Below the pieces are notes generated by a model. The model had not been told where the DNA came from and searched no databases. It saw only the letters and a list, made by a program, of their open reading frames with translations. From a virus (lineage: Duplodnaviria > Caudoviricetes): a DNA stretch of 55,018 bases. Location of the stretch: positions 1 to 55,018 of the IMG/VR virus record IMGVR_UViG_3300048586_000930; one strand, 5' to 3'. Position 1 is the first letter of the stretch; each line of letters opens with the position of its first letter. Positions 4,782 through 27,764 of the stretch are shown here, piece by piece. A program made the translations under genes and the position numbers.

Positions 4782-6130
4782 GCCGCGGCCCTCCCGGCCT
4801 CGGGCGCCCGTGCGGCGAGGTCGCGGACCAGGCTGCCGAGCCCGTTCAGCCGCAGCCGCACCGCAGCCCCGCCCGCTCGGACGTCGACCCGGTCCACCAG
4901 CAGTCGCACGATGCGCGCCCGCTCGGCGGGGAAGAGCTCATCCCACAGCGGTTCGATCCGTTCCAGTGCCAGCAGGACCTCCTGCTCGGTGACGTCCGGC
5001 GCCGCCGCGCGCGCTGCCCGCCAGGTGCCGACCACCATCTCGGGCTGGCGCAGCAGCGCACCGACCTGGGCGACGACCGCCGCCTCGATCTCGCCGGCAG
5101 GCACGCGCGGGATCGCCGGCCGCTCCGTCGCGTCGCCCTTCAGCACGGCCTGGCTGACTTAGTAGCGGTACATCTGCCCGCCCCGCCCGCGGCTGTGGCT
5201 CGGCGACATGGCGCGGCCGTAGCTGTCGAAGATCAGCCCGCGCAGCAGCGGCGCGGTGGTGTTCCGTGTCCGGTTGACCCGCACTCGCGGGCTGACCTGT
5301 AGGACGGCGTGCACCGCGTCCCACTGCGTCTGCGCGACGATGGCATCGTGCTCGCCGGGATAGGCTGTGCCCTTGTGCACCGCCTCGCCGAGATACACGC
5401 GGTTGCTGAGGATGCGGTAGACGTCGCTCTTCGTGAGCGGGCGGCCCCGCTTCGTGGCGGCACCCTCGTCGCGCAGCACTCCCACCAGCTTGGTGCAGGA
5501 CTCCAACTCGACGAAGCCCTGGAAGATCCGCTGCACCAGAGCGGCCTCGGCGTCGTTCACCACCAGCTTGCGCTCGCGCACGTCGTAGCCGAGCGGCACA
5601 TACCCGCCCATCCACATGCCCCGCTTGCGCGACGCGGCCACCTTGTCGCGGATTCGTTCGCCAATGACCTCACGCTCGAACTGCGCGAAGCTCAGCAGGA
5701 TATTCAGCGTCAGCCGCCCCATGCTGGTGGTGGTATTGAAGCTCTGTGTCACCGACACGAACGTCACACTGTTTGCGTCGAACACCTCGACCAGCTTGGT
5801 GAAGTCCACCAGCGACCGGCTGAGGCGGTCGATCTTGTAGACGACCACCACGTCGACCAGCCCCTCCTGGATGTCGGCGACTAGGCGCTTGAGGGCGGGG
5901 CGTTCGAGGGTGCCGCCGGAGATGCCGCCATCGTCGTATTGGTCGCGCACCAGCACCCAGCCCTCGGCGCGCTGGCTGGCGATGAAGGCCTCGCAGGCCT
6001 CGCGCTGGGCGTCGAGGGAGTTGAACTCCATGTCGAGCCCTTCCTCGCTCGACTTCCGAGTGTAGACGGCGCAGCGGAGCTTCCGAACGGCGGCCGGCAT
6101 CACGCCGGTGGGCTTCGCGTCGCGCTTCAT
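4778..6130 (-). pseudogene. Large serine recombinase (integrase) with an internal nonsense codon
   Basis: Catalytic YTRKSSEE and VVYKIDRLSRS motifs plus a recombinase domain. ORFs 5159..6178 and 4778..5146 share a frame and read ...QMYRY*VSQAVLKGD..., with TAA at 5161-5159. Read-through length is 450 aa. Confidence 0.88.
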
Positions 6131-6633
6131 GCGACGCGCCGGCTCGGGCGCAGCCCGAAGAACACGCGCCCGTTCCATCGCGTGCCGGTGATGGCGCGCG
6201 CGATGGCGGACAGCGATTGGTAGGGGCGGCCCTGGTACTCGAAGCCGGCCCGCGTCACGGTCACGACGTGCTCAACACCCTGGTACTCGCGGATCAACTG
6301 CGTGCCGGCGATCGGCTTGTCGTCGCCGCGCCTGCGACGGACGGTGACCTTGCCGCCGTCGAGCTGCTCACCGAGCGCCTCGAGACGGGCCAGCGTCTCG
6401 GGCTTCAGGCCGCCATAGGCCAGCTCCTGGATCCGGTAGGCGAGCCGGCTCTCCAGGAAGCGCCGATTGTAGGGCGGCGGCTCGGTGCCGAAGAGCTCCC
6501 GCCAATGCTGCTTCAGGGCGGGCGTGGCGGCGGTCTTCAGGGCGGCGAGCCGGCCCAGCACGTCGGCGGGCGGGATGGCAGGGGCCGTGAACGCCGGCGG
6601 GGTGGCGGGCTTGGGCTTCGTGGTGCGCGTCAT
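6127..6633 (-). CDS. DUF2924-family protein
   Basis: LAYRIQELAYGGL, GTQLIREYQG and YQSLSAIARAITGTRWNGRVFFGL. ATG at 6633, coupled to the integrase. Confidence 0.85.
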   Translation of the reverse strand: MTRTTKPKPATPPAFTAPAIPPADVLGRLAALKTAATPALKQHWRELFGTEPPPYNRRFLESRLAYRIQELAYGGLKPETLARLEALGEQLDGGKVTVRRRRGDDKPIAGTQLIREYQGVEHVVTVTRAGFEYQGRPYQSLSAIARAITGTRWNGRVFFGLRPSRRVA

Positions 6634-7605: not shown

Positions 7606-7887
7606 TCAGCCCGCGCGCATGCTGCGCAGGCGCCGATAGGCCAGCACGACGCGACCCATATCCTTGCGCATGTCGGGCGGCAGACGCTCCGCCTCGACAA
7701 ACAGGGCGTCGAGCGGAATGCCGAGGATCGCCGCGGCGCGCTGGACCACCTCATCGCTCGGTGGCCTGTCGAGATTGCGCTCGATCCGTGACCAATAGCC
7801 GGGAGAAATCCCCATCCGCTCGGCCAGATCATTGAGCCCGATCGCGAGCTCCGTGCGCCGAGCGCGCACCACATCGCCAAACGCCAT
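7606..7887 (-). CDS. XRE-family HTH repressor (ImmR-like)
   Basis: MAFGDVVRARRTELAIGLNDLAERMGISPGYWSRIER, 93 aa from the ATG at 7887. Confidence 0.88.
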   Translation of the reverse strand: MAFGDVVRARRTELAIGLNDLAERMGISPGYWSRIERNLDRPPSDEVVQRAAAILGIPLDALFVEAERLPPDMRKDMGRVVLAYRRLRSMRAG

Positions 7888-8615
7888 CACACGCCTCCTT
7901 CCACCAGGCCGTAGCGTGACAGGCGCACGGCGATGAACCGCTCCGACACACCGAAATCGCCGGCCAGCGCCGCCAGCACGCCGGCGAGAACATCGGACGG
8001 ATTGCCGGCCGCGACGATCGGGCTGGCCGGTCGGCCCTGGTGCGGCCCGCGGCAAAGCCGCAGCCCCTCGCCGCGCGCGTAGGCCAGCAGCCGCGTGTGC
8101 AGCGGCACTGGCGGCGCCAGCAGGGCGCCCATGAACTCGTTGGCACGAGCTTCAGCGCCACGACCCTGGCGTTCGAGCGCCCGCGGTGAACTCGCCACCG
8201 CGTGATAGCGCTGGTCTCCTCTGGCCAGCGCGGCCGGCACGTCAAACAGCAGATGGCCGAGCTCATGCGCCGCCGTACTCAGCGCCAGGTCGGGGCGATT
8301 GGCCGTCATTGGTCCATTGACCGCGATGTAGGCCCAGCCCGGTTCGTGCGCATCGATGTCGCAGAGGCCGAGCACGGTCTGGCCGAACTCATCGCGCAGC
8401 GCGCGGCCCAGCTCCCAGGACACGGACAGGCGCTGCCCGTTCACCTCGACCGCGCGACAGGCGTCGATCAGGGCCGGGAGGGTGAGCGCGAGGCTGTCGG
8501 GCTCGCGCGGGACCTGGCGCCGGACCTGGGCGGCAACCGCGCGAATGGCTGGGGCAGCTGCGTCCTGGCGCGGGCTGAGCGCCGCGGCTGCGGGATAGGC
8601 GATCGCGATGCACAT
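7887..8615 (-). CDS. ImmA/IrrE-family Zn metallopeptidase
   Basis: TAAHELGHLL (HExxH) and EARANEFMGALLAP. Adjacent to the XRE gene. Confidence 0.9.
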   Translation of the reverse strand: MCIAIAYPAAAALSPRQDAAAPAIRAVAAQVRRQVPREPDSLALTLPALIDACRAVEVNGQRLSVSWELGRALRDEFGQTVLGLCDIDAHEPGWAYIAVNGPMTANRPDLALSTAAHELGHLLFDVPAALARGDQRYHAVASSPRALERQGRGAEARANEFMGALLAPPVPLHTRLLAYARGEGLRLCRGPHQGRPASPIVAAGNPSDVLAGVLAALAGDFGVSERFIAVRLSRYGLVEGGV

Positions 8616-8705: not shown

Positions 8706-8854
8706 AGGGGGTGCGTTGATCGCGGCTATCACGCACCCCCTGGTGCGTAAGTGTTTGATGGGGAGTGCTAACGCATTGAGTAGTTATGGGGTGCGATGAT
8801 TGGCGGGGGCGTTCAATGCACCCCTGCGCACCCCCTTGCCCTAGCCGCACCCCC
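8706..8854. repeat. Array of six GCACCCC(C) motifs, putative operators
   Basis: Perfect 11-bp inverted repeat AGGGGGTGCGT (8706-8716) / ACGCACCCCCT (8731-8741). Further copies at 8788-8795 (reverse), 8817-8824, 8827-8835 and 8846-8854. Confidence 0.75.
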
Positions 8855-13680: not shown

Positions 13681-15260
13681 CCCTCTCGCTCCGCCCCTAT
13701 CAGCGCGCCGCCATCGAGGCGCTCTACGACTACTTCTCGGCCAGCAGCGGCAACCCGCTGGTCGTTATGCCGACCGGCACGGGCAAAAGCCTGTGCATCG
13801 CCGGCTTTACGCGCGAGGCCATCGCCGCCTACGGCGACACCCGCGTGCTGATCCTCACCCACGTGAAGGAGCTCATCCAGCAGAACTTCATGGCGCTGCT
13901 GCGCGCCTGGCCGGAGGCGCCGGCCGGCATCTACTCGGCCGGGCTGTCGCGCCGCGACATTCACGCGCAGATCCTGTTCGCCGGCATCCAGTCGATACAC
14001 CGCCACGCGCGGCAGGTGCAGCGCTGCGATCTGGTCCTGATCGACGAGGCGCATCTGCTCGGCCGCGGCGATAGCGGCATGTACCGCTCCTTCCTGGCGC
14101 AGCTGAACGAGATCAACGCAGGCCTGCTTAAGGTCGTCGGCTTCACGGCGACACCGTATCGCCTCGACAGCGGCATGCTGCATGAGGGGAAGGATCGGCT
14201 CTTCACCGACATCGCCTTCCAGGTGCCGGTGCTGGAAATGATCCAGCAGGGTTACCTCTGCCCCGTCGTCCCCAAGCAGACCTCGACGCAGCTCGACGTC
14301 GGTGGCGTCGGCACCCGCGGCGGCGAATTCATCGCCAAGGATCTTGAGGCGGCAGTGGACCGCGACGAGGTCACGCGCGCCGCAGTGGCGGAGATCGTCC
14401 AGCACGGCGAGGGCCGCGGCTCCTGGCTGGTGTTCTGCTCGGGCGTCGCTCACGCCGGCCATGTCCGAGACGCCATCCGCGAGCATGGCATCTCCGCCGA
14501 GACGGTCACCGGCGACACGCCCGGCCCCGAGCGCGACGGCATCCTGGCCGCCTTCAAGGCGGGGCGCCTGCGCTGCGTCACCAACGCGAACGTCCTGACC
14601 ACCGGCTTCGACGCGCCCGGCACCGATCTCATCGCGCTGCTGCGTCCGACAAAGAGTGTCGGCCTCTACGTCCAGATGGTCGGCCGCGGCACGCGCCTCG
14701 CCGAGGGCAAGGACGACTGCCTCGTGCTGGATTTCGCCGGCAACACGGCGCGGCACGGTCCGATCGACACGGTCGACGGCCGGAAGAAGGAACCCGCCGG
14801 CGACGGCGAGGCACCGATCAAGGTCTGTCCCGAATGCCAGACCATCAACCATGCCAGCGCGCGGCGCTGCATCGAGTGCGACCACGAGTTCCCACCGCCG
14901 GTGGTGAAGGTAGCGCCGCAGGCGGCCTCCAACGCGCTGCTCTCGACGCAGATCCAGCCGTCCTGGTGCGACGTCACCGGGATCACCTATGCGCGCCATG
15001 ACAAGCCTGGGAAGCCAGCCTCGCTGCGGGTCACCTACGAATGCGGCCTGGCGCGGCACAGCGAGTGGGTCTGCTTCGAGCACACCGGCTTTCCGCGGGA
15101 CAAGGCGGTGGGCTGGTGGCGGCGGCGTGCCGGCAATCTGCCGCCCCCCGCCACCGTCGATGCGGCGCTGGAGCAGCTGGATCAGCTGCGGCGGCCCATC
15201 GCGATCCAGGTGCGGCCGGCGGGCCAGTACACCGAAATCGCCGCCGCGAGGTTCGTGTGA
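13677..15260 (+). CDS. SF2 DEAH helicase (RadD/YejH-like) with Zn finger
   Basis: LRPYQ, PTGTGKS, DEAH, TATPYR, LTTGFD, QMVGRGTR and CPEC..CIEC. Confidence 0.92.
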   Translation: MTLSLRPYQRAAIEALYDYFSASSGNPLVVMPTGTGKSLCIAGFTREAIAAYGDTRVLILTHVKELIQQNFMALLRAWPEAPAGIYSAGLSRRDIHAQILFAGIQSIHRHARQVQRCDLVLIDEAHLLGRGDSGMYRSFLAQLNEINAGLLKVVGFTATPYRLDSGMLHEGKDRLFTDIAFQVPVLEMIQQGYLCPVVPKQTSTQLDVGGVGTRGGEFIAKDLEAAVDRDEVTRAAVAEIVQHGEGRGSWLVFCSGVAHAGHVRDAIREHGISAETVTGDTPGPERDGILAAFKAGRLRCVTNANVLTTGFDAPGTDLIALLRPTKSVGLYVQMVGRGTRLAEGKDDCLVLDFAGNTARHGPIDTVDGRKKEPAGDGEAPIKVCPECQTINHASARRCIECDHEFPPPVVKVAPQAASNALLSTQIQPSWCDVTGITYARHDKPGKPASLRVTYECGLARHSEWVCFEHTGFPRDKAVGWWRRRAGNLPPPATVDAALEQLDQLRRPIAIQVRPAGQYTEIAAARFV

Positions 15261-15610
15261 GATGCGCCGCCTGTCGTCTCCGCACCGCCCGCGGCTTTGG
15301 CTGGTTCGATCCGCGCGTGCGGACCAGCGAGCCGCTGCCGGCCTGTTCCATGCGCTGCATGAGCGCGCTCTGCCGGAGGTGGGGCGTGGTTGATCCCGAC
15401 GAGCACGAGATCGCCGCGATCGCGGCGGCTAGCCCCATGGCAGGCGAATACCTGGAGAGCATCGGCAAGAGCGATCTCGCGGTGCTGACCGAGGCCGAGT
15501 GGCTGACGCTGCTGGAGGTGATCATCACCGCCTACCAGGACGAGCTCGCTCGCCTGCTGGATCACGGTCGTCATCCGGCGCCCCCGCTCGCTGCGGGTGG
15601 CCGGTCATGA
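15257..15610 (+). CDS. DUF6511-like phage protein
   Basis: GTG at 15257. CAAC...CSMRC...GEYLESIGKSDLAVL. Confidence 0.65.
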   Translation: MRCAACRLRTARGFGWFDPRVRTSEPLPACSMRCMSALCRRWGVVDPDEHEIAAIAAASPMAGEYLESIGKSDLAVLTEAEWLTLLEVIITAYQDELARLLDHGRHPAPPLAAGGRS

Positions 15611-16008
15611 GTGGCGTCACCTCGGCCCGAGAGGTCGCGCGCCGGCTCGGCATTTCGCACACCGCGATGCAGAAGGCTGAACGCGCCGGACGGATCGCGC
15701 GTGAGCCGAATGGCGCGTGGGACATCGAGAAGGTCCGGGCCGGGCTCGCGACCAAGGGCACCCCTGCGCCGCGCAAGCCCTATGGTCCACGCGCGACGCA
15801 GCCGCCCTGGGCGAGGGCTGCGCACCATCTCGGCGAGCTCGCGTCGGACATTCGCGGCCCCGCACGTGGGATCCACGCCGAGCTGGAGCGGGCACGCCAG
15901 GCGCTCGAACGCGCCGCCCGCCAGATGGCCGCGCTCTATCCTGAAATTCTGCGCCTGGAGCGCACGTGCGACGCCGCCATTGCCGCTCAGGAAGGAGGCA
16001 GCGAGTGA
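15607..16008 (+). CDS. wHTH protein paralogous to the N-terminus of the terminase small subunit
   Basis: 26/43 identical residues with the N-terminus of 25325..25840 by manual alignment. The C-terminus is unrelated and helical. Confidence 0.75.
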   Translation: MSGVTSAREVARRLGISHTAMQKAERAGRIAREPNGAWDIEKVRAGLATKGTPAPRKPYGPRATQPPWARAAHHLGELASDIRGPARGIHAELERARQALERAARQMAALYPEILRLERTCDAAIAAQEGGSE

Positions 16009-18323
16009 CGGATGCCCCCTCCTTTATGGCCGATTACGGCGAGCGCCTGGTCGATAACGGCTATTCGGTCATCCCGATCATGCCGGGCACCAAGGTGCCG
16101 GGGCGCTTCACCGGCGGGGAGTGGTCGCCCTATCCCGACTGGGCGCGTCACTGCGACCGGCCGACGAAGTCCTTCGAGGTGGACATCTGGCGCCGCTGGC
16201 CCGGCTGCGGCGTCGGCATCGCCACCGGCGCCGTTGTGGGCATCGACATAGATATCGTGGACGGCGCGCTGGCCATCCAGATCGCCGAGCTCGCCACGTC
16301 CATGCTTGGCGAGACCCCCTGCCTGCGCATCGGCCGCGCCCCGAAGCGCCTGCTGGTCTATCGCGCCGCCACGCCCTTCGCGGGCCGGAAGCGCCATCCC
16401 CTCGAGCTGCTGGCGCGTGGCCAGCAATTCGTCGCCTATGCCGTCCACCCGGACACCGGCCGCCCCTATGAATGGCCGGAGGACAGCCTGGTGGAGCTGT
16501 CGCTGTCCCGATTGCCGGTCGTGGACGAGGCCGGCTGCACGGCCTTCCTGGACGCTGCCTGGCAGCTCGTGCCGGACGAGGTAAGGGTCAACTCGATCCT
16601 GGCGGACGCGCCCACCAGCACCTGGCGAGGCCCGAGTGACCCGAAGGGCACGCGGGATGCCATCGCGGCGGCACTTGCCTGGCTGCCGAACGACGACCTG
16701 CCGGGCAACGAGTGGATTACCGTCGGCGCCGCCATCAAGGCCGCGATCGGCGAGGAGGGCCGCGACCTCTGGCTCGACTGGTCGCGGCGGTCCGGGAAAT
16801 CAGGGCAGTCCGGTCGATCGGACACCCCCGAGCGGCGCTGGGCCTCGCTGCGGCCGCACAGCGTCGGCGCGGGGAAAATTTACTGGCTGGCCGAGCAGCG
16901 CGGCTGGGTGCCGGATCCTGCTCTGACGCTGAACGGCACTGCAGCGGAGCAGGCGGCACAGCCGCATCCCGCGGCCGGCCTGCTGGCGAAGGTCGCGGTG
17001 GCGCCGCTGCCGATCGCACCGCCGCCGAAGCCCTATCGCGTCCCGCCCGAGCTGCTGCAGGTGGATGGTGCGCTGCGCATGTTCGTGGACTATGCCACGG
17101 CCAGTGCCGTCAGCCCGCAGCCGTTCCTCTCGCTGGGTGCCGCCATCTGCCTGGTCGGCGCCATCGCCGGCCGCCGCTATCGCACCCCCACCGATCTGCG
17201 CAGCAACGTCTACGCCATCGGCATCGCCGACAGCGGCGGCGGGAAAGACCATGCCCGGCGCTGCGCGAAACGCGCGATCTACGCCGCAGGCCTGGACCGA
17301 TACCTTGGCGGCGAGGATCTCGCCTCCTCGGCGGGGCTGCTCACGTCGCTGCAGCGCCATCCCGCCCGCCTGTTCCAGGTGGACGAATTCGGCCAGTTCC
17401 TGAAGCTGGTCCTGAACCAGCGCGCACCGGCGCATAAGGCGGCCATCTGGTCGGAGCTGACGAAGCTCTACACCTCAGCGGCTGAGCCCTACATCGGCGC
17501 AGAATACGCCGACCAGAAGGCGCGGCCGCGCGTCACCATCGAGCAGCCCTGCGCCTGCATCTGGGGCGTCACCGTCCCGGGCCCGCTGTGGACCGCCCTG
17601 GAAGGCGGTGCGCTCGCCGACGGCTCGATCGCGCGCTTCCTGGTCTTCCTGACGGACGACGACTACCCGGAGCGCAATGAGACGCCGGGGCCGATGGATC
17701 CGCCGGCGGCGCTGGTGTCCGCCCTTCAGGGGATCGCTCGCGGCGTGCCCGGCCACAGCCATGGCGGGAACATCGCCGATGCCATGGAGTCCTCGGCGCC
17801 GATCCACGCCTACACGGTGCCGCTCAGCCCCGACGCGGAGACCGCGATGGCGCGTGTGCGTCGGGAGGCCACCGAGCTCCTGCGGTCGCACCGTGGCACC
17901 TACGCCACCGCACTGTTCGGCCGATACGCCGAGAACGCGGCGAAGCTGGCGATGATCGCCGCGGTCAGTCGTGATCCCGCCCGGCCCATCACCCAGGCCC
18001 GCGACGTCACCTGGGCCTCGGCGCTGGTCGAGCACTGCATCGGCACACTGCTTCGCGAAGCCGAGCGTCTTGTCGCCGACACGCCGGCGCATTCCCGCAT
18101 CAAGAAGGTCCTCGAGGTGATCCGCAAGGCCGGCCGGATCAGCCGCAGCGCCTTCGTCCGGAAGACGCAGTTCCTCTCGAAGGCCGAGCGGGAGGACGCC
18201 ATCGCCACGCTGCTCGACAGCAAGCAGATCGCGATCGAGGTCACGCAGAACGCCTCCGGCCCCGGCACCAGCTGGATCATCGCCACCGAACCACAGGAGG
18301 GCTTGAAGAGTGATGCTGCATGA
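16005..18323 (+). CDS. Bifunctional primase-polymerase with PriCT-2 and DUF3987-like helicase domain
   Basis: GYSVIPIMPGTKVP, VGIDID, WITVGAAIK...WLDWSRRS, DSGGGKD and QVDEFG. Confidence 0.88.
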   Translation: MTDAPSFMADYGERLVDNGYSVIPIMPGTKVPGRFTGGEWSPYPDWARHCDRPTKSFEVDIWRRWPGCGVGIATGAVVGIDIDIVDGALAIQIAELATSMLGETPCLRIGRAPKRLLVYRAATPFAGRKRHPLELLARGQQFVAYAVHPDTGRPYEWPEDSLVELSLSRLPVVDEAGCTAFLDAAWQLVPDEVRVNSILADAPTSTWRGPSDPKGTRDAIAAALAWLPNDDLPGNEWITVGAAIKAAIGEEGRDLWLDWSRRSGKSGQSGRSDTPERRWASLRPHSVGAGKIYWLAEQRGWVPDPALTLNGTAAEQAAQPHPAAGLLAKVAVAPLPIAPPPKPYRVPPELLQVDGALRMFVDYATASAVSPQPFLSLGAAICLVGAIAGRRYRTPTDLRSNVYAIGIADSGGGKDHARRCAKRAIYAAGLDRYLGGEDLASSAGLLTSLQRHPARLFQVDEFGQFLKLVLNQRAPAHKAAIWSELTKLYTSAAEPYIGAEYADQKARPRVTIEQPCACIWGVTVPGPLWTALEGGALADGSIARFLVFLTDDDYPERNETPGPMDPPAALVSALQGIARGVPGHSHGGNIADAMESSAPIHAYTVPLSPDAETAMARVRREATELLRSHRGTYATALFGRYAENAAKLAMIAAVSRDPARPITQARDVTWASALVEHCIGTLLREAERLVADTPAHSRIKKVLEVIRKAGRISRSAFVRKTQFLSKAEREDAIATLLDSKQIAIEVTQNASGPGTSWIIATEPQEGLKSDAA

Positions 18324-18504
18324 TGCGCGCAAACCCGCGGAAAACCGGACTCTTCAACAATTCAACTTTTCACGCGGGCGTATGCAGACGTTCGGGCGGG
18401 GGCGCGGGGGAGAGAGACCCATTGAAGAGTTTGAAGAATTGAATAGTCATATTGATCAGATACTTAGGCCTCTCCCACCCCCTCGACTCTTCACCACTCT
18501 TCAA
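18303..18504. repeat. Seven TTGAAGAG/CTCTTCAA-like octamers in an AT-richer tract, putative replication origin
   Basis: Copies at 18303, 18350 (rc), 18422, 18431, 18439, 18487 (rc) and 18497 (rc), at the 3' end of and downstream of the primase gene. Confidence 0.65.
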
Positions 18505-18527
18505 GAGCGCGGCCGGGGGAGGCAGGC

Positions 18528-18758
18528 GTGAGCATGCCTGGCGCGCCCTTGCCGCCCCGCTCGTCCCTCGACCGCGGAAGCCGCAGCGCAACCACTGTGC
18601 CCGAGATGGAGATGCTGCGCCGCCGCGTCTGGCTGCAGCAGGGCGTGGTCTCGCTGCACCTCGAGGACATCACCGATCCCTGGCTGCGCCAGGCGATCCA
18701 GAACGAAGCCGTGCGCCGTTGGGGCCCGCGGCAGCAGGAGAAGACTCATGGCCGGTAA
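18528..18758 (+). CDS. Small hypothetical protein
   Basis: 76 aa. RBS GGAGG upstream, overlaps the next gene. Confidence 0.6.
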   Translation: MSMPGAPLPPRSSLDRGSRSATTVPEMEMLRRRVWLQQGVVSLHLEDITDPWLRQAIQNEAVRRWGPRQQEKTHGR

Positions 18759-19296
18759 GCGGAAGGCAAAGGACTCGAAGCGGAACGAGGCCCTCGGGCC
18801 GTCGAAGTGGCGGATGCAGCATGGCGGGTTCTCGGAGCCGATCCGTGAGGCCGATCCCGAGACTGGCCTGCCGGTCGTGCACCGTCGCACGGTCGACACC
18901 CTCGGCCAGATGCTCGCCAACGGCACTATTACGGAGGAGATGCACGACGCCGGCGCCGTGTTCCGCCGGCAGTTCCGTGTCGCCGCTCTGGATCAGCTGC
19001 GTGCCATGCCGCTGATCCGCATTCCTGGCGGCTCCGGTGATTCCCTCACCGATCGCCAGGTTGCTGCCCGGGAGCAGATCGCGCATGCCATGATGGCGCT
19101 GGGCGGCTTCGAGAGCGCAGCCGGCTCCTGCGTCTGGCACGTTGTGGGGCGGGAATGCTCCGTGCGGGAATGGGCGCTGCGCCAGGGCTGGGGTGGGCGC
19201 AGCGTTGGCCACGCGCAGGCCCAGGGCATGTTGGTGGCGGCGCTCGGTGTCCTGGCCGCGGTCTATGGTCTGGTGCCGGCGCGGCGAGCAGCGTGA
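18748..19296 (+). CDS. DUF6456-like protein, possible late transcription regulator
   Basis: 182 aa, RBS AGGAG. Last gene of the replication operon, the position lambda Q occupies. Confidence 0.65.
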   Translation: MAGKRKAKDSKRNEALGPSKWRMQHGGFSEPIREADPETGLPVVHRRTVDTLGQMLANGTITEEMHDAGAVFRRQFRVAALDQLRAMPLIRIPGGSGDSLTDRQVAAREQIAHAMMALGGFESAAGSCVWHVVGRECSVREWALRQGWGGRSVGHAQAQGMLVAALGVLAAVYGLVPARRAA

Positions 19297-19301
19297 GGCG
19301 G

Positions 19302-19508
19302 TCACTCCATGCCGAGCACGAAGGCGACCGCCTCGCCGATCAGCGTGAATGGCAGGGCCGGATGATGGGCGAGGATGGCGTCGTGGACAGCCTTGCTGGT
19401 GTCGACCCTGGTGAAGGGATCGGGAGGTCGCCGCGCAGCCCGTGCGGCGGCCAGCGTCGAGACGCTCAGCCATGGCGGAGGAAGGCGGGGTGGCTCGCCA
19501 TCGGGCAT
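19302..19508 (-). CDS. Small hypothetical protein
   Basis: MPDGEPPRLPPPWL..., 68 aa, divergent across an SOS box. Confidence 0.5.
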   Translation of the reverse strand: MPDGEPPRLPPPWLSVSTLAAARAARRPPDPFTRVDTSKAVHDAILAHHPALPFTLIGEAVAFVLGME

Positions 19509-19531
19509 GCGGACGCATATCGCCCCTATGA

Positions 19532-19546
19532 GAACAATACAAGAAC
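19532..19546 (+). promoter_or_regulatory. Alphaproteobacterial LexA (SOS) box
   Basis: GAAC-AATACAA-GAAC is an exact GAAC-N7-GAAC in a divergent intergenic gap. Confidence 0.78.
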
Positions 19547-19582
19547 ATGATAGAGAGACCGTGCTCACGAAGGAGGACGGTA

Positions 19583-19918
19583 ATGGCCGCACGTCGCCGG
19601 GCAGCGACACGCCCTCTCGATGCGGCGCTGGTGCGCCTGCAGACGATGGCGGCGCGTGGGGTCCAGCCGACCCGCATGGCGCGCGAGGTTGAGATCATCG
19701 TCGGTGAATGGCTTGGTGAGTCGGATGCCGATCCTGGTGACGTGAGGTCCCGGCTGGACGAACTGCATGAGCAGCTGGCGTCCGGCGTTGTCGATGCCGA
19801 GGAGCAGGTGTCCTACGTCGATCCCGATGAGGCAGCCGCGGTGAAGCAGGCTGGCGTCACCTTGGCGGCGCTGGTCGCGACGCGGGATGCGGTCGAGCGC
19901 GCACGCAACGCGCTGTAA
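19583..19918 (+). CDS. Hypothetical helical protein, probably SOS-inducible
   Basis: AGGAGG RBS at 19571-19576, 111 aa, 37 bp downstream of the SOS box. Confidence 0.7.
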   Translation: MAARRRAATRPLDAALVRLQTMAARGVQPTRMAREVEIIVGEWLGESDADPGDVRSRLDELHEQLASGVVDAEEQVSYVDPDEAAAVKQAGVTLAALVATRDAVERARNAL

Positions 19919-20009
19919 TCCGCACGGCCGGCACAGCCATGCCGCGTTGGTTGCTGACAGGCTGTCTTGGCTTCGCTATGGCACGCGCTCTGCAACGGAG
20001 ATCTAGTCT

Positions 20010-20321
20010 GTGTCGAAGAAGTTCCTGACCGACGTCATCGCAAACTCCACCGACTTGTCCGGCGTCGCGGCGACCAAGCTGGCTGGCGACATCATCGAGG
20101 CGATCAAGGGCGAGATCGTCGCGAGCGGCCGGTTCACGATCCCCGACTTCGGCGCCTTCGTTGTGCGCGAGACGCCGAAGCGCACGGCGCTGAACCCCCG
20201 CACGGGTGAGAAGGTGCCCGTGAAGGCGGGTGCGACGGTGAAGTTCAAGGCGAGCCCGGCCCTGAAGACGGCGGCGCTGGGCGGCCTCAAGAAGGCCAAG
20301 CGCAAAGCTGCGAAGGGCTGA
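20010..20321 (+). CDS. HU/IHF-family DNA-binding protein
   Basis: FTIPDFGAF...RTALNPRTGEKV...VKFKAS..LK with a Lys-rich tail. Confidence 0.93.
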   Translation: MSKKFLTDVIANSTDLSGVAATKLAGDIIEAIKGEIVASGRFTIPDFGAFVVRETPKRTALNPRTGEKVPVKAGATVKFKASPALKTAALGGLKKAKRKAAKG

Positions 20322-20487
20322 GACAGCGACGCGCGGCCGGTCCGCGCTGTTACAATTCACCCGCTGGCGGAGCGGAATCCGCATCTCGTAGACTCTCCCC
20401 ACGATGATGAATTGCGGGTGCAGCCTGCTGCACCGCGGCTCGCCAGCCACAACGTCGCTCAATCGAGACAGTGGCTCGCGAGCCGCA

Positions 20488-20642
20488 GGGTCCTTCCTGG
20501 GCCCGGCGTATGCGGGGGGCGGAAGCGCGCAACATCGCTAGCGCCTGGCCGGAAATGTGGTTCGCAGTTCGCACCCTTCGGCTCTGATCTCAATTGCTTA
20601 GCTGCGAACCATGGCCGCGCCGGTTCGCAGCCTCGGTTCGCG
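20488..20642 (+). other. Putative cos packaging site (cosQ-cosN-cosB-like)
   Basis: GGGTCCT (lambda cosQ heptamer) at 20488-20494. TGCG-GGGGGCGGAAGCG-CGCA at 20511-20531. Five GTTCGC(A) repeats at 20559-20642 around an IHF-like TCTCAATTGCTTA (20588-20600). Confidence 0.6.
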
Positions 20643-20666
20643 CCCACCCTGATCCTGGATGGCCCG

Positions 20667-22133
20667 ATGACGCTCCCCTGGATGGCAGCGAAGATCCTGC
20701 TGCGCCCGGTGGCGGAGCTGCGCGCGCATCCCGGCAACGCGCGCGTGCACGGCGCCGCGCAGATCGAGCAGATCAAGGCCAGCATGCTGGCCTTCGGGTT
20801 CACCAATCCGCTGCTGGTGGACGAGGACGGCGTGCTCATCGCCGGTCACGGCCGCCTCGAGGCCGCGGTGGCGCTTGGCATCGAGAAGGTGCCGACCATC
20901 GTGCTGCGGCATCTCTCCGCGGCGCAGAAGGAGGCGCTGCGGCTCGCCGACAATCGCATCGCGGAGAACGCGACCTGGGACCAGGCGCTGCTGCGCGATG
21001 CGCTCACCGCTGTGCAGGCGGCGCCTGACCTCGACCTTGCGGCGCTCGGCTTCTCGGCCGCGGAGCTCGACGACATCCTCGCGGCGGCTGAAGAGGCCGT
21101 GTCCGACGGCGACGCGCCCGAGGACCTGTCGGCACCCGCGGTCCAGAGGGGCGGGGATGGCGCGGCGGAGACGGAGGAGGCGGCGGAGGATGATCCCGCC
21201 GATGCCGAGTCGGATCCGCCGCGCCAGGCCGTCACCAGGCTGGGCGACCTCTGGCTTCTCGGCGAGCACCGCCTGCTGTGCGGCGACAGCACGGATGCCG
21301 CGTCGGTCGCTCGCGTCATGGGCGCGGACCGTGCAGCGCTGCTCTTCACCAGCCCGCCGTACGGGAACCAGCGCGCCTATACCACTGGCGGCATCTCGGA
21401 TTGGGATGCGCTGATGCGCGGCGTCATCGCCGCTGCCTCCGGCGCGATGCGCGCCGACGGCCAAGTGCTGGTGAACCTCGGCCTGATCCACCGCGAGGGC
21501 GAATGGCAGCCCTACTGGCAGGGGTGGCTCGACTGGATGCGTGCGCAGGGGTGGCGGCGCTTCGGGCTCTACGCCTGGGATCAGGGGCCCGGCCTGCCAG
21601 GCGATTGGAATGGACGCCTCGCGCCGGCCTTCGAGCTGGTCTTCCACTTCAACCGCGAGGCCCGCGCGCCGAATAAGATCGTGCCCTGCAAATGGGCCGG
21701 CACACCGAACAAGGGCAGCGGCTTGCGCGCCGCCGACGGCGAGGTGAAAGCCTACACCCATATCGGGCTCCCCGTGCAGGAGATGCGGATCCCGGACAGC
21801 GTGCTGCGCATCACACGGCACAAGGGCCGGGGCATCGAGACCGAACATCCTGCAGTGTTCCCCGTGGCGCTGCCGGAGCTGCTCCTGCAGACCTACGCAA
21901 ATCTCGGCGACGCGGTGTTCGAGCCCTTTGCCGGCTCCGGCACCACCATCCTCGCCGGACAGCGCACGGGACGGAAGGTCTGGGCGATTGAGCTCGCGCC
22001 GGCCTATGTCGACCTCGCCATCGCGCGCTACCGCATGCTGTTCCCTGAGCTGAACGTCACGCTGGATGGCGACGGCCGAGGTTACGATGCCGTGGCTGCA
22101 GAGCGGGCGGAGGCGCTGTCCGATGCAGCTTGA
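20667..22133 (+). CDS. ParB-N fused amino (N4-C/N6-A) DNA methyltransferase 1
   Basis: FGFTNPLLVD...IAGHGR, TSPPY, HPAVFP and EPFAGSGTT. Confidence 0.9.
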   Translation: MTLPWMAAKILLRPVAELRAHPGNARVHGAAQIEQIKASMLAFGFTNPLLVDEDGVLIAGHGRLEAAVALGIEKVPTIVLRHLSAAQKEALRLADNRIAENATWDQALLRDALTAVQAAPDLDLAALGFSAAELDDILAAAEEAVSDGDAPEDLSAPAVQRGGDGAAETEEAAEDDPADAESDPPRQAVTRLGDLWLLGEHRLLCGDSTDAASVARVMGADRAALLFTSPPYGNQRAYTTGGISDWDALMRGVIAAASGAMRADGQVLVNLGLIHREGEWQPYWQGWLDWMRAQGWRRFGLYAWDQGPGLPGDWNGRLAPAFELVFHFNREARAPNKIVPCKWAGTPNKGSGLRAADGEVKAYTHIGLPVQEMRIPDSVLRITRHKGRGIETEHPAVFPVALPELLLQTYANLGDAVFEPFAGSGTTILAGQRTGRKVWAIELAPAYVDLAIARYRMLFPELNVTLDGDGRGYDAVAAERAEALSDAA

Positions 22134-23391
22134 GCTTCAGGTGACGACCGTCCCCGTCGCGGCGCTGGTCCCCTACGCGGAGAACGCGCGGACGCACTCC
22201 GAGGAGCAGGTGGCGCAGATCGCCGCCTCGATCGCCGAGTTCGGCTTCGTGAACCCGGTGCTGGTGGATGCCGCCGGCGTGCTGGTTGCGGGCCACGGTC
22301 GCGTCATGGCCGCGAAGCGCCTTGGGATGGCGGCGGTGCCGGCGATCCGGCTCGCGCACCTGACCGAGGCGCAGGTGCGGGCGCTGCGGCTGGCCGACAA
22401 CCAGATCGCGCTGAACTCCGGCTGGGACGAGGCGCTGCTCGCCGCCGAGATCGCGCGCATCCGCGACGAGGCGGTGGTGGACCTCGACGTCCTCGGCTTC
22501 TCTGGCATCGAACTCGACCGCCTGCTGGCCGCCGTGGATGCCGGCCTCGAGGACGACGCCGACGACGCGCCCGAGCCCCCGGCCGTGCCGGTCACGCGCG
22601 CTGGCGACCTCTGGCGCTGCGGCGAGCACCGCCTGCTGTGCGGCGACGCCACCAAGCTGGCCGACGTGCAGCGCGCTCTCGGCTCCGATCGCCTCGCTGA
22701 CATGGCCTTCACGGACCCGCCCTACAACGTCGCCTACCAGGGCGGCACCGCGGCGAGGATGACCATCGCCAACGACGCGCTGGGCACCGGCTTCCTCGAC
22801 TTCATCCGCCCAGCGCTCGCGAACCTGCTCTCGGTATCGAAGGGCGCCTGCTACATCTGCATGTCCTCGTCCGAATGGCCGACGCTGCACCGCGCCTGGC
22901 AGGAAGCCGGCGGGAAGTGGTCGAGCACGATCATCTGGGCAAAGAACACCTTCGCGCTCGGTCGCGCCGACTACCACCAGCAGTTCGAGGCGATGCTCTA
23001 CGGCTGGAAGGCGGGCACGCAGCACTACTGGTGCGGCGCGCGTGACCAGGGGAACGTCTGGCGCTTCGACAAGCCGGCGCGGAACGACCTGCACCCGACG
23101 ATGAAGCCGGTGGCGCTGGTCGAGCGTGCCATCCGCAACAGCAGCAAGCAGCGCGACACGGTGCTGGATCCGTTCGGTGGCTCCGGAACTTCGATGATCG
23201 CGGCGGAGCGGACTGGGCGGCGCGCCGTGCTGCTCGAGCTCGATCCGGCCTATGCTGATGTGATCGTGCGTCGCTGGCAGGAGGCGACCGGCGGGACTGC
23301 GGTGCTCGATGCCGAAGATCGCACCTTCGCGGACATCGCCGCGGCACGCGGCATCGTCGATCATGATGTGATCCAGACCGCCGAATCATAG
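22123..23391 (+). CDS. ParB-N fused DNA methyltransferase 2
   Basis: FGFVNPVLVD...VAGHGR, TDPPY, HPTMKP and DPFGGSGTS. Confidence 0.9.
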   Translation: MQLELQVTTVPVAALVPYAENARTHSEEQVAQIAASIAEFGFVNPVLVDAAGVLVAGHGRVMAAKRLGMAAVPAIRLAHLTEAQVRALRLADNQIALNSGWDEALLAAEIARIRDEAVVDLDVLGFSGIELDRLLAAVDAGLEDDADDAPEPPAVPVTRAGDLWRCGEHRLLCGDATKLADVQRALGSDRLADMAFTDPPYNVAYQGGTAARMTIANDALGTGFLDFIRPALANLLSVSKGACYICMSSSEWPTLHRAWQEAGGKWSSTIIWAKNTFALGRADYHQQFEAMLYGWKAGTQHYWCGARDQGNVWRFDKPARNDLHPTMKPVALVERAIRNSSKQRDTVLDPFGGSGTSMIAAERTGRRAVLLELDPAYADVIVRRWQEATGGTAVLDAEDRTFADIAAARGIVDHDVIQTAES

Positions 23392-23488
23392 CAATTCCGC
23401 GGCGCTCCATCTTGCTTGGCTCACGCGTGGCACAGCGCGAATGGTCCGTCACGCGCAGGGGATGCCCTGCACCAAGACGGAGACCAGC

Positions 23489-23725
23489 ATGACCAACCGC
23501 GACGCCCGCGCCGCCCGCAATCAGCAGACGAGCCTCGAGGCCTTCCTGCAGCAGAAGGCCCGCTTCGACGCGATGGTCGCCGAACTGCAGCAGATGAGCG
23601 CGGACCACTTCGTAGCGGATCCCGAGGACGTCCTCTGGGGCAAGGCCGCGAGGCTCGAACACTGGAACAGCCGGCTGGCGAGCGTGACGGATTGCTACTT
23701 CAAGCGCGGTGAATTCGCCGAGTAG
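23489..23725 (+). CDS. Small hypothetical phage protein
   Basis: 78 aa from the ATG at 23489, GGAG RBS. Confidence 0.7.
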   Translation: MTNRDARAARNQQTSLEAFLQQKARFDAMVAELQQMSADHFVADPEDVLWGKAARLEHWNSRLASVTDCYFKRGEFAE

Positions 23726-23822
23726 CACGCGGCACATCCCGCCGCGGCCCCGACCGGCAGCACCGGCGGGGCTCCCGGCAGTAGGGGCCGATGGTCGGCA
23801 CCCGACACCGGAGACCACCAAG

Positions 23823-24599
23823 ATGACGAAGCTTTCCGACACCCAGCGCGTGATCCTGAGCGCGGCTGCGCAACACGAGATGGGCCTCGCCCGCGCGCCG
23901 AAGACCCTGCCGGCCGCCGCCCGCAACGCGGTGTTCCGCAGCTTGATCAAGACCAACCTGCTGACCGAGACCAACGCCCCGCGGGAGCATGTCGGGCTCG
24001 GCTGGCGGCAGGATGAGGACGGGATCTGGATCGTGGCGCGCATCACCGACGACGGGCTGCGCGCCATCGGCATTGACCCGAACGAGGGGGATGCCCCGGC
24101 CGACACGGCGCCTGCCAGCGCGGAGGAGGCGGCGCCGCGGAGTGAGGACGCCCCGCCGCCCGAAGCCGCCCAGGCCGTGCCCACGCCCGCCCAGCGCGCG
24201 AGTCTGCGCGACGCCGCCGCGGCGCTGCTGGCCGCCTGGGACGACGAAGCCAACCGCGAGGCGGACATCATCACGGCCCTCGACGGCCCGATGGCGGCCC
24301 TCCGCACCGCCCTCGCCGGCAAGCCGCCCCGCGCCGCCCGCGAGCCGGGCGCGCCGCGCAAGCCGCGCGAGGGCACGAAGCAGGAGGCGGTGCTCGCCCT
24401 GCTCCGCCGCGAGGAGGGCGCCACCATCGCGCAGATCTGCGAGGCCACCGGCTGGCAGGGTCACACGGTTCGGGGCTTCTTCGCCGGCCTGAAGAAACGC
24501 CAGGGGATCGAAGTGCAGGTGCTGGAGCGGGTCCGGCAGGTCGGCCCGATCAAGGAAGGAGCGCGGGGCAGCTACACCATCTACAAGGTGGATCGCTAA
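23823..24599 (+). CDS. DUF3489-family wHTH protein
   Basis: MTKLSDTQRVILSAAAQH...REGTKQEAVLALLRREEGATIAQICEATGWQGHTVRG. Confidence 0.82.
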   Translation: MTKLSDTQRVILSAAAQHEMGLARAPKTLPAAARNAVFRSLIKTNLLTETNAPREHVGLGWRQDEDGIWIVARITDDGLRAIGIDPNEGDAPADTAPASAEEAAPRSEDAPPPEAAQAVPTPAQRASLRDAAAALLAAWDDEANREADIITALDGPMAALRTALAGKPPRAAREPGAPRKPREGTKQEAVLALLRREEGATIAQICEATGWQGHTVRGFFAGLKKRQGIEVQVLERVRQVGPIKEGARGSYTIYKVDR

Positions 24600-24611
24600 T
24601 CGCCTGGCGCC

Positions 24612-24636
24612 GCCCGCTGCCGCTTCGGCAGCGGGC
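24612..24636. terminator. Hairpin between convergent genes, probable terminator
   Basis: GCCCGCTGCCG-CTT-CGGCAGCGGGC, an 11-bp perfect stem with no clear U-tract. Confidence 0.55.
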
Positions 24637-24656
24637 TCGACGGCCGGCGGGCGACG

Positions 24657-25184
24657 CTAGTACCGGATCGAGATCTCGATGGAGCTCTCCGGGATACCCA
24701 AACCGAGAGCGAGCCCGGCTTTCGCTTCAGCGATGGTCAGCGGACCAAAGCCTTCCTTATCCTCGTCCTGAGGCGCTGCAGCAGGAGTGGCCTCCGCAGG
24801 CGCGGGATCCGGGATGCGGTACCATTTCAGCGTTTCCGGGTCAGTGATGCCGAATTCTTCGAGCGTAGCGTAGCGCACCGGGTTCCGAAGGCCGGGCCAC
24901 GCATTCGGATAATCAATTCTCGCATATTCCGAGAACTTGACGAGATAGCGCTCAGGTCTGCCCTCCGGAGACGGCACTACTTCGCTGATCCGTCCAACCA
25001 TGAACGCATGGTGGTGTTCTTGGTCGGCACCACCCCAATGGCCGTTATGGCGGTTTTGGACACAGACGCAGTAGGCAAGCCGACGGACATTCTCGGGCTT
25101 AAGCCGCCAAGCCTGCGTGCCGCCTTCGGCGAGCAGGCGGGCCGGCCCCCTGGCGGTCAGAACGACTAGACACGGGGTGCTCAT
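24657..25184 (-). CDS. Accessory (moron) protein of unknown function
   Basis: 175 aa from the ATG at 25184 (GGAG RBS). Opposite strand to the late operon, with an AT-richer upstream region. Confidence 0.75.
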   Translation of the reverse strand: MSTPCLVVLTARGPARLLAEGGTQAWRLKPENVRRLAYCVCVQNRHNGHWGGADQEHHHAFMVGRISEVVPSPEGRPERYLVKFSEYARIDYPNAWPGLRNPVRYATLEEFGITDPETLKWYRIPDPAPAEATPAAAPQDEDKEGFGPLTIAEAKAGLALGLGIPESSIEISIRY

Positions 25185-25324
25185 TCGGATTCTCCGCGGT
25201 CGGAACTCGCGTAATGTAATCCCGGTTTTTCGGCAATTGCAAGGCATATTCCAGCAATATACTCACGGAATATCGCGCCACTTGAGACGCGCCGCACCGC
25301 CGCGCACGGCGGGAGGTCGCCGCC

Positions 25325-25840
25325 ATGCCCGAGCTGACCCCATCCACGCGCGAGGCCGCCCGCCGAATCGGCATTACCGAGACGGCGCTGCGCAAGGCCG
25401 AGCAGACCAGCCGCATCGCGCGCGAACCGGACGGCCAGTGGGATATCGACAAGACCCGCCGCCGCCTGGTGGAAACCGCCGACCCCGCTCGCTCGCCCCT
25501 GGCCAGCGGCACCGGCGCCGAGGGCACGCCGTTCGCTCGGCTGAAGGTCGCGCAGCTCGCCCTGAAGGTGGAGGCGCAGCGCCTCTCGCTGGATGAGACC
25601 AAGCGCCGTCTGCTCGACGTTGCCGAGGCCAATGCCGCGCTCGACGAGATCGGCAGCACCATGCGGGACGCGCTGGTGAACTGGCCCGCCCGTGTCTCGG
25701 GCCTGATCGCCGCCGAGCTCGGCGTCGACCCGCATCTGCTGCAGACGATCCTGCAGAGTCACATCAACGACCTGCTGACGGAGGCGGCCGATCGCTTCGA
25801 TCCAGCAGGCCTCGGAGGGGACCGGCCTCCGCAGCCGTGA
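25325..25840 (+). CDS. Terminase small subunit (gpNu1-like)
   Basis: N-terminal wHTH, coiled coil and L.NWPARVS.LIAAEL. GGAGG RBS. Immediately precedes TerL. Confidence 0.8.
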   Translation: MPELTPSTREAARRIGITETALRKAEQTSRIAREPDGQWDIDKTRRRLVETADPARSPLASGTGAEGTPFARLKVAQLALKVEAQRLSLDETKRRLLDVAEANAALDEIGSTMRDALVNWPARVSGLIAAELGVDPHLLQTILQSHINDLLTEAADRFDPAGLGGDRPPQP

Positions 25841-25844
25841 GCAT

Positions 25845-27764
25845 GTGCGCCGGCGCGTGGGTGCGATGCTACGCCCACCGCCGCAGCTCACCGTCTCGGA
25901 ATGGGCCGAGCGGCATCGCATGCTCGGCAGCCGCGCCTCAGCCGAGCCGGGCCCCTGGCGGACCAGCCGCACGCCGTATCTGAAGGACGTGATGGACGCG
26001 CTCTCGGCAGTGCATCCCGCCCGGCGCGTCGTCTTTATGAAGGGCGCGCAGGTCGGCGCCACCGAGAGCGGCAACAACTGGCTCGGCTACATCATGCACC
26101 ACGTGCCGGCGCCGGCGCTGGCGGTGCAGCCGACTGTGGAGCTGGCCAAGCGCTTCTCGCGCCAGCGCATCGACCCTCTGCTGGAGGAGACGCCGGCGCT
26201 GCGGGAGCGGGTGGCGCCGGCGCGGGCCCGCGACAGCGGCAATACCATGCTGTCGAAGGAATTCCCTGGCGGCATCCTGGTGCTGACGGGCGCGAATAGT
26301 GCGGTCGGCCTGCGCTCGATGACGGCGCGTTTCCTGTTCCTCGACGAGGTGGACGCCTATCCCGGCGATGTCGCCGGCGAGGGCGACCCCATTGCCTTGG
26401 CCGAGGCTCGCGCCCGCACCTTCGGCTGGCGCCGCAAAGCCTTCCTGGTCTCGACGCCGACCATCGCCGGCCGCAGCCGGATCGAGCGGGAATACCTGGC
26501 CAGCGACCAGCGGCGCTTCTTCGTGCCGTGCACGGCGTGCGGGGAGATGCAGTGGCTGCGCTTTGAGCGGCTGCTCTGGGACAAGGGTGCGCCGGAGACG
26601 GCGCGGTATCACTGCTCGGCCTGCGACCACCCGATGCAGGAGCACGACAAGACGGCAATGCTCGGCGGCGGGGAATGGAGGGCGACGGCAGCGGGTCAGG
26701 ACCCGCACACCATCGGCTTTCATATCTCGGCGCTGTACTCGCCCGTGGGCTGGCTCTCCTGGGCGCAGATCGCGCGCGATTGGGAAGCGGCGCAGGGCAA
26801 GCCCGAGGACATCAAGACCTTCAAGAATACGGTTCTGGGCGAGACCTGGCAGGAGCAGGGCGAGGCGCCGGATTGGGAGCGCCTGGTCGAGCGCCGCGAG
26901 GATTTCGCCATGGGCGTGGTGCCGCCCGGCGCGCTGGTGCTGACCGTGGGCATCGACGTGCAGGATGATCGGCTGGAATGCGACGTCTGGGGCTGGGCGG
27001 AGGGTTTCTCGTCGTGGCTCGTGGATCACGTGGTGATCCCGGGCAGCCCGCGGGACCGCGAGCCCTGGGACGAGCTGGCGAAGCTGCTCGCGCGGGACTG
27101 GCCGCGGCAGAGCGGCGGCGCGATGCGCATCGCCCGGCTCTGCGTCGACACCGGCGGCCGCGACACCGCCGCCGTCTATGGCCACCTCCGCCGCCTGCGG
27201 GATCCCCGCATCGCGCCGACCAAGGGCATCGACGGCTGGAACCGGGCGCAGCCGGTGCAGGGGCCGACGCCGGTGGATGCGCTGGTCGACGGTCGGAAGC
27301 TCCGGCGCGGCCTCAAGCTGTGGACGGTGTCCGTCTCGACCTGGAAGGCCGACCTGTACCGCCGGCTCTGGCTCGGCCGCGGGGATGCGGAGGAGTTGCC
27401 GCCCGGCTGGGTGCATCTGCCGCGGGCAATCGAGGTGGAATGGGTCAAGCAGCTGGTCGCGGAGCAGCTGCGCACCACGAAGGATCGTCACGGCTTCGCG
27501 CGGCAAGAATGGGCCAAGCTGCGCGAGCGGAACGAGGCGCTGGATTGCGCCGTGCTCGCCCGCGCCGCCCTGTGGCTGCTCGGTGCCGACCGCTACGGCG
27601 AGCGCTTCTGGCAGCAGCTGCGGGACCAGATCGCCGACGCCCCGCTGCGGCCGAGCGAGCTTCCCACCACCGGGAACGTCGCTCCCCCGTCGGCGCCGCC
27701 GATCGCGCCCGACACCCATCGCCCGCCTGGCTGGCTCGCCCCGCGTGGCGGCTGGCTGCGCTGA
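25845..27764 (+). CDS. Terminase large subunit (lambda gpA family)
   Basis: RTPYL, MKGAQVGATE, FLDEVD, STPT, GIDVQDDR and RNEALDC. Confidence 0.95.
   Translation: MRRRVGAMLRPPPQLTVSEWAERHRMLGSRASAEPGPWRTSRTPYLKDVMDALSAVHPARRVVFMKGAQVGATESGNNWLGYIMHHVPAPALAVQPTVELAKRFSRQRIDPLLEETPALRERVAPARARDSGNTMLSKEFPGGILVLTGANSAVGLRSMTARFLFLDEVDAYPGDVAGEGDPIALAEARARTFGWRRKAFLVSTPTIAGRSRIEREYLASDQRRFFVPCTACGEMQWLRFERLLWDKGAPETARYHCSACDHPMQEHDKTAMLGGGEWRATAAGQDPHTIGFHISALYSPVGWLSWAQIARDWEAAQGKPEDIKTFKNTVLGETWQEQGEAPDWERLVERREDFAMGVVPPGALVLTVGIDVQDDRLECDVWGWAEGFSSWLVDHVVIPGSPRDREPWDELAKLLARDWPRQSGGAMRIARLCVDTGGRDTAAVYGHLRRLRDPRIAPTKGIDGWNRAQPVQGPTPVDALVDGRKLRRGLKLWTVSVSTWKADLYRRLWLGRGDAEELPPGWVHLPRAIEVEWVKQLVAEQLRTTKDRHGFARQEWAKLRERNEALDCAVLARAALWLLGADRYGERFWQQLRDQIADAPLRPSELPTTGNVAPPSAPPIAPDTHRPPGWLAPRGGWLR

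Follow-up and report, generated by a model that had tools for sequence, protein, structure and literature searches.

A TerS-type DNA-binding head in an optional replication-operon cassette of Acetobacteraceae cos prophages, and its possible role as a decoy

The window considered here is the whole of a provirus record (55,018 bases, 69% G+C, ∼97% complete by estimate). Its early replication operon contains a small cassette gene, the product of which joins a wHTH of the kind found at the N terminus of small terminases (TerS) to a conserved long C-terminal helix. Across 24 related loci that carry both genes, the recognition type of the cassette HTH (the first one in tandem forms) differs in every case from that of the TerS encoded by the same phage. 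The comparative evidence points, with a little less than even confidence, to a decoy that would bind the cos repeats of a rival phage.

The cassette gene and its surroundings

The features relevant to this analysis are collected in Table 1. The cassette open reading frame ends with a TGA at 16006-16008. Its ATG overlaps the stop codon of the DUF6511 gene (ATGA, 15607-15610), and its own stop overlaps an in-frame GTG of the primase gene (GTGA, 16005-16008), which is preceded by GGAGG 8 nt upstream; an alternative primase ATG lies at 16026. The coupling just upstream of the primase that had been noticed by the sequence-only reading is therefore confirmed. The order of the operon is Sak4-like annealing protein, DUF669-like SSB, Cas4-domain exonuclease, helicase, DUF6511, cassette and primase. 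Full-text literature searches returned no paper mentioning DUF6511.

Table 1. Features of the window discussed in the text
Feature	Position	Strand	Remarks
DUF6511 gene	15257-15610	+	start approximate; stop overlaps cassette ATG
Cassette gene	15607-16008	+	133 aa; TerS-type wHTH, linker and conserved long C-terminal helix
wHTH domain of cassette protein	15616-15750	+	residues 4-48; recognition helix ISHTAMQKAERAG, "type H"
Long helix of cassette protein	15805-15999	+	residues 67-131; most conserved part of the family
Primase gene	16005-18323	+	Prim-Pol, PriCT_2 and a C-terminal part; the final 80 aa divide into classes
AT-rich origin-like region	18303-18527		CTCTTCAA/TTGAAGAG repeats, directly after the primase stop
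Cos-like region	20420-20668		conserved core, then GTTCGCA at 20560, 20567, 20603 (-) and 20623
Cognate TerS gene	25325-25840	+	recognition helix ITETALRKAEQTS; phrog_57, E 9.5e-23
Large terminase ORF	25845-27764	+	GpA-like by reading of the ORF; PF05876 tags on relatives

Several other features of these regions were recorded. Five GGGGGTGCG-like words at 8706-8850, between a divergent regulator gene (241 aa, 7887-8615, -) and the early operon, look like operators. A serine recombinase gene (5159-6178, -; 338 aa; phrog_95, E 4.7e-92) is the sole recombinase recognized near the left end. Some contigs from RNA libraries include the cassette gene (for example X19 record 4, 15066-16772), and presence in such a contig does not equate to transcription. 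The rare 8-mer CACGTGCG occurs three times within the cassette gene; it was rejected as a meaningful repeat and is treated as chance, because the matching codons vary among relatives. A generic repeat search of 15000-26000 returned nothing useful.

The structure of the cassette protein was predicted with AlphaFold2 from a 49-row alignment. The model comprises the wHTH, a low-confidence linker at residues 49-66 and a single long helix, with pLDDT values of 92-97 across residues 90-130. Comparison of the family indicated that this helix is retained when the N-terminal domain is replaced. The initial description of the remainder of the protein as different from TerS holds; given the one long predicted helix, "coiled-coil-like" is plausible only.

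The cassette is an optional insert between the DUF6511 and primase genes of Acetobacteraceae cos prophages. It is found with one HTH (133 aa), with two tandem HTHs (∼207 aa) or with an unrelated N-terminal domain (P0122/L023, L132), or it is absent; all forms have the same strongly conserved tail and precede the same primase. At locus L034, the DUF6511 gene is joined straight to the primase gene. In addition, contigs from two RNA-library runs, each of a different study, pass from the DUF6511 gene into the primase gene with 5-6 other letters between them; the part left out is exactly 15611-16016 or 15611-16017. Given that such contigs occur in freshwater and other samples, cassette-less relatives circulate there. 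On the basis of L034 and these contigs, the cassette is dispensable for the replication module. In one host genome, the cassettes of three related prophage loci (L002, L022 and L023) have three different heads: one has a single HTH, one has two HTHs in tandem and one has a non-HTH domain. L002 and L022 have near-identical TerS heads; L023 ends before TerS.

Relationship of the cassette head to small terminases

The two wHTH domains of the window had been reported to share 26 of 43 residues without gaps, and re-counting gave the same value. No more than 14 identities were reached in 100,000 shuffles, and the runner-up 43-mer in a six-frame comparison of the window scored 13. BLASTP of the cassette protein against the 171-aa TerS of the window gave 35/67 identities (E 3e-17). 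The word RIAREP was present in both proteins and at no third place in the six frames of the window, and the whole record contains these two copies of the wHTH. Assignment of the downstream protein as TerS rests on its phrog_57 match and on the ORF that directly follows its gene, which we read as a GpA-type large terminase (TerL) from the ORF itself and from its PF05876-tagged relatives. The cassette is not adjacent to TerL: TerS and TerL are encoded 9.7 kb downstream. The same layout was observed in 15 of 23 genome loci, the remaining eight of which end too early. Between a DUF3489 gene and TerS lies a gene of lower G+C content (24657-25247, -; 56-64%) that is missing from the other loci searched and has no Pfam match; it looks like a moron.

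The best PHROG match of the cassette protein was phrog_57 (E 3.2e-7), with a weak match to phrog_66 (excisionase and regulator; E 0.007). No Pfam family scored above its cut-off, HTH_50 reaching 22 bits against a cut-off of 27. A word-indexed search (E ≤ 1e-3) returned 330 proteins, and the figures given here rest on the best 120 of these 330. About 50 clusters in this set are full-length cassette relatives from Roseomonas-group Acetobacteraceae, and phrog_57 was matched by 69 of the next 70. An exhaustive search of representatives gave 170 matches; phrog_57 was found in 132 of the 148 that were scanned, two giant low-complexity proteins being omitted. Because the head by itself could produce a phrog_57 match, the C-terminal part of TerS was also made into a profile, with the HTH left out. 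This profile matched 36 of 53 representatives of 150-260 aa and, among the best 120 of the 330 word-indexed matches, 56 of 86 proteins in the same length range. By contrast, it matched none of the 51 members of the cassette family. Judged by these searches, the nearest relatives outside the cassette family are TerS proteins, and the domain is closer to TerS than to excisionase families; the possibility raised at the outset of a generic excisionase-like HTH was not borne out.

The cassette head resembles one class of TerS most closely, with identities of up to 74-77% to type-H TerS heads (the types are defined in Table 2) and agreement at 12 of 13 recognition-helix positions with the type-H TerS of L057 (ISHTALQKAERAG). 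In a tree of HTH domains, D-type cassette heads grouped with D/E TerS (SH-aLRT 89); resolution of this tree is poor, and a monophyletic group of cassette HTHs was not rejected (AU p 0.164). A Foldseek comparison of the cassette protein with the PDB gave no match at E ≤ 0.001. The top rows, none of them significant (best E 0.49), were BldC, MerR-family proteins, RacA and Xis/RdfS. A sequence-profile search of the PDB with the cassette protein gave nothing below E 0.1. A protein-atlas search with the cassette tail gave no usable match, and one with the alternative N-terminal domain of P0122 gave leads at 0.89-0.90 only (DUF3631 and DUF3874).

Recognition types, cos repeats and the opposite-type rule

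Two repeat regions of the window had been put forward as possible targets of the cassette protein. That at 20488-20642 does resemble a set of cos repeats, lying as it does after a conserved core and varying in concert with the recognition helix of TerS. The core (TATGCGGGGGGCGGAAGCGCGC...) is common to two prophage lineages, with 94% identity over 151 nt at L038, and the GTTCGCA repeats at 20560-20629 are presumed to be the sites of the "type E" TerS of the window. Covariation was assessed at 51 loci, for which duplicates were dropped; each had to have a core match, 100 nt or more of sequence past the core and a TerS head that was known. At all 51, the repeats after the core change in step with residue 2 of the TerS recognition helix, differing from one another by 1-2 bases (Table 2). 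The repeat motifs are GGTTGCCA for type H, GGTTCGCA for type E, the window's own, and GGTTTGCA for type D. In phage lambda, the N-terminal wHTH of gpNu1 reads the R sites in cosB. Given the covariation and this parallel, the best reading is that TerS binds at the repeats and that its helix determines specificity; linkage within one module could partly be the cause of the covariation.

Table 2. TerS recognition-helix type and the repeat that follows the cos core
Residue 2	Helix	Repeat	Loci
H	SHTALQKA	GTTGCC	24/24
D	SDTAIHKA	GTTTGC	18/18
E	(T/S)ETALRKA (window, L017)	GTTCGC	2/2
R	distant SRGA type	none of the three motifs	7/7

An HU-like gene (20010-20321) lies immediately upstream of the cos-like region and was detected by tblastn in five other loci only (L004, L010, L015, L016 and L020). 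Tandem genes for ParB-domain DNA methyltransferases (20669-22133 and 22066-23391) separate the cos-like region from TerS; in type-H phages, extra GTTGCCA/TGGCAAC copies are present in the linker-coding part of the first of them.

The other region, 18303-18504, was not sustained as cos. Over 20 loci, its repeats fall into four classes that match the class of the last 80 residues of the primase, the C-terminal part of which is probably a winged-helix origin-binding domain. The identical cassette recognition helix, ISHTAMQKAERAG, occurs with all four classes. Since the repeat classes track the primase C terminus, 18303-18527 is considered origin-like and not the site of the cassette protein.

To compare the cassette with the TerS of the same phage, the HTHs of all loci were classified and the TerS from the record of L122 was added, which gave 24 loci having both genes. 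Nine same-record duplicate loci were dropped, and every remaining pair of loci has at least 30 differences over 2.7 kb. At 20 of the 24, a D/E TerS is accompanied exclusively by H-type cassette HTHs; at the other four, an H-type TerS is accompanied by a D-type first HTH (Table 3). No single-HTH cassette of the same type as its own TerS was present in the 24 loci. A candidate exception is provided by L125 and L126 (H-type TerS), in which the second HTH is H-like (ISHTALMKAERAG). Tandem forms with a D-type and an H(Q)-type HTH also exist (P0023, L123), outside the 24-locus count. A metagenome scan yielded 11 further loci, most of them short or duplicates, none of which was a new locus having both genes.

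Table 3. Combinations of TerS and cassette HTH types among the 24 loci
TerS type	Cassette HTH type	Loci
D	H	12
D	H + H	6
E	H	1
E	H + H	1
H	D	2
H	D + H-like variant (ISHTALMKA)	2

In a tree of the primase N-terminal domain (331 columns), loci with type-H TerS do not group together: L122 pairs with L020 and L128 with L017 as sisters, and the clade of the window includes both L125 and L126. This gives three independent sister pairs, on branches with good support, that differ in TerS type; in each of the three, the type of the cassette has flipped likewise. A sign test on these pairs gave a p of only 0.25, because three pairs are too few. Whether the cassette wHTH tracks the cognate TerS had been put forward as a check. 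Head identity within genomes (0.672) was no higher than that between genomes (0.673; permutation p 0.69; Mantel r 0.20, p 0.15), and therefore no positive tracking was observed. The 43-aa HTH of the window's cassette is identical to those of L002 and L016; the cos repeats are GTTCGC in the window and GTTTGC in L002 and L016. Since the pool has two main types, the opposite-type rule could also arise if selection acted solely to keep the cassette from matching the TerS of its own phage.

The cassette HTH of the window is of type H, with GGTTGCCA as its predicted site, and its own TerS is of type E, with GGTTCGCA as the corresponding site. The sequence GTTGCCA is absent from the 55-kb window (0 copies against 4.3 ± 2.2 expected), and clustered GTTNNNA variants were not found there besides the GTTCGCA of cos. 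Singletons in relatives are scattered and not conserved in position. Similarly, GTTTGCA has 0 copies in the sequence examined from each of the four loci whose cassettes are D-type. Candidate sites were present in other prophages of the same hosts. Among the 10 host genomes with a window-type prophage, five also encode a full-length type-H TerS, with 74-88% identity to P0063, and a sixth encodes a partial one. All five co-resident type-H stretches examined contain the cos core followed by 4-5 GTTGCCA copies, and none has a cassette within 11 kb upstream of TerS.

Explanations and comparison with known systems

These data are most simply explained by a model in which the cassette protein acts as a decoy. 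Its wHTH head would have been drawn from the small-terminase pool, with the specificity of another cos-phage lineage that circulates alongside its own (type H, GGTTGCCA). Expressed from the early operon, the protein would occupy the cosB repeats of the rival and thereby keep the rival terminase from assembling, leaving its own cos free. The protein lacks the TerS C-domain; as a decoy it would be without the part that recruits TerL, and the conserved C-terminal helix might serve self-association or an effector contact. If the head reads TerS-type repeats, a cassette of its own type would be harmful to its phage. Against the decoy reading, it explains neither the role of the very conserved tail nor the close coupling with the primase.

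The earlier suggestion of an early TerS mimic had several branches, of which interference with competing phages is favored by the comparative data, as opposed to occupation of the phage's own cos. That the protein acts on its own cos repeats, delaying packaging or coupling it to replication, is very improbable. A TerS-like head that lacks the TerL-binding part, encoded in an early operon, would suit such a role; however, a recognition type that differs from that of the cognate TerS at 24/24 loci argues against both the timing of packaging and its coupling to replication, as do the lack of GTTGCCA in the window, the identical HTH in phages with GTTCGC and with GTTTGC repeats, and the lack of positive tracking of the cognate TerS. 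A replication accessory, in which the variable head, an HTH borrowed from TerS, would tether the constant helix and thus the primase or helicase to DNA, is unlikely. It would account for the position and translational coupling between DUF6511 and primase, and for a tail that is the most conserved part, is kept on head swap and always stands upstream of the same primase. It is at odds, however, with origin-like repeats that track the primase C terminus and occur in all four classes with the same HTH, with the absence of the cassette from otherwise similar modules (L034 and the contigs of two runs) and with the lack of clustered candidate sites in its own genome, and it leaves the opposite-type rule unexplained. 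An origin-binding initiator like lambda O was also rejected, because the iteron classes track the primase C terminus and the cassette is missing from L034 and from the contigs of two runs. Co-folding of full-length primase with the cassette protein from separate alignments scored 0.00 and 0.00 and carries no weight either way.

A MerR/Xis-like wHTH transcription regulator, or a recombination directionality factor, acting on a site in its own genome is quite unlikely, more so than the replication accessory. The weak phrog_66 match and the non-significant Foldseek rows point in this direction, as does an integrase candidate that is a serine recombinase; the directionality factors of serine recombinases may be encoded at any genome position. 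Nevertheless, TerS is far closer than any excisionase family, no conserved self site was found, and the head type flips between near-identical flanks, which argues against a fixed self site.

To return to the decoy, a broader version would be a reciprocal war over packaging specificity between sibling cos-phage lineages that share hosts. Here, D/E phages would carry a type-H decoy, cassette-bearing type-H phages a type-D head, and tandem forms would be multi-specific, with the resulting pressure diversifying cosB/TerS into H, D and E in a manner likened to the immunity types of lambdoid phages. This extension is speculative and is considered rather unlikely. If the decoy reading is correct, a full phage blinds the cos of its rival by means of a rival-type TerS head, in competition for the DNA site itself, and there would be a selective reason for the diversification of cos/TerS specificity. 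It predicts that the residue class of the 13-aa helix (H, D or E) pairs with one base change in the 7-mer repeat, and natural polylysogens with both players exist, namely the hosts of L006, L010, L011, L020 and L021.

In agreement with the initial impression that the arrangement is undescribed, full-text literature searches returned no account of a TerS-head cassette in a replication operon. The cassette protein shares a homologous N-terminal wHTH with phrog_57-type TerS. Unlike TerS (171-196 aa), it has 133 residues, is not encoded beside TerL, lacks the C-domain for oligomerization and TerL binding, and has a type that is never that of its own phage's cos. With MerR/Xis-like wHTH proteins such as BldC and Xis, which bind head-to-tail on direct repeats, it shares the fold class of the head, as suggested by non-significant Foldseek rows; in contrast to TerS heads, which are much closer, these proteins gave no significant structure or sequence match.

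Rpp of Gram-negative PICIs is described as binding the helper TerS and redirecting it to the PICI genome (PMC6739421). The likeness to what is proposed for the cassette lies in packaging interference at the step where TerS recognizes cos; the proposal differs in that it concerns competition for a DNA site, by a phage against a sibling phage. The element that carries the cassette is, moreover, a 55-kb provirus estimated to be ∼97% complete and no satellite, unlike a PICI. In SaPI cos interference, the element reportedly blocks packaging of the competitor's genome. Gpi of the PLE satellite (Gpi/GpsAB) is described as targeting TerL (PMC11417361). A block on the packaging of a competitor, proposed for the cassette, would be common to all of these; Gpi/GpsAB and SaPI belong to satellites that parasitize a helper phage, whereas the cassette would set a full phage against a phage. 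Known packaging interference involves satellites that seize or poison terminase proteins, and competition for the DNA site would constitute a different mechanism.
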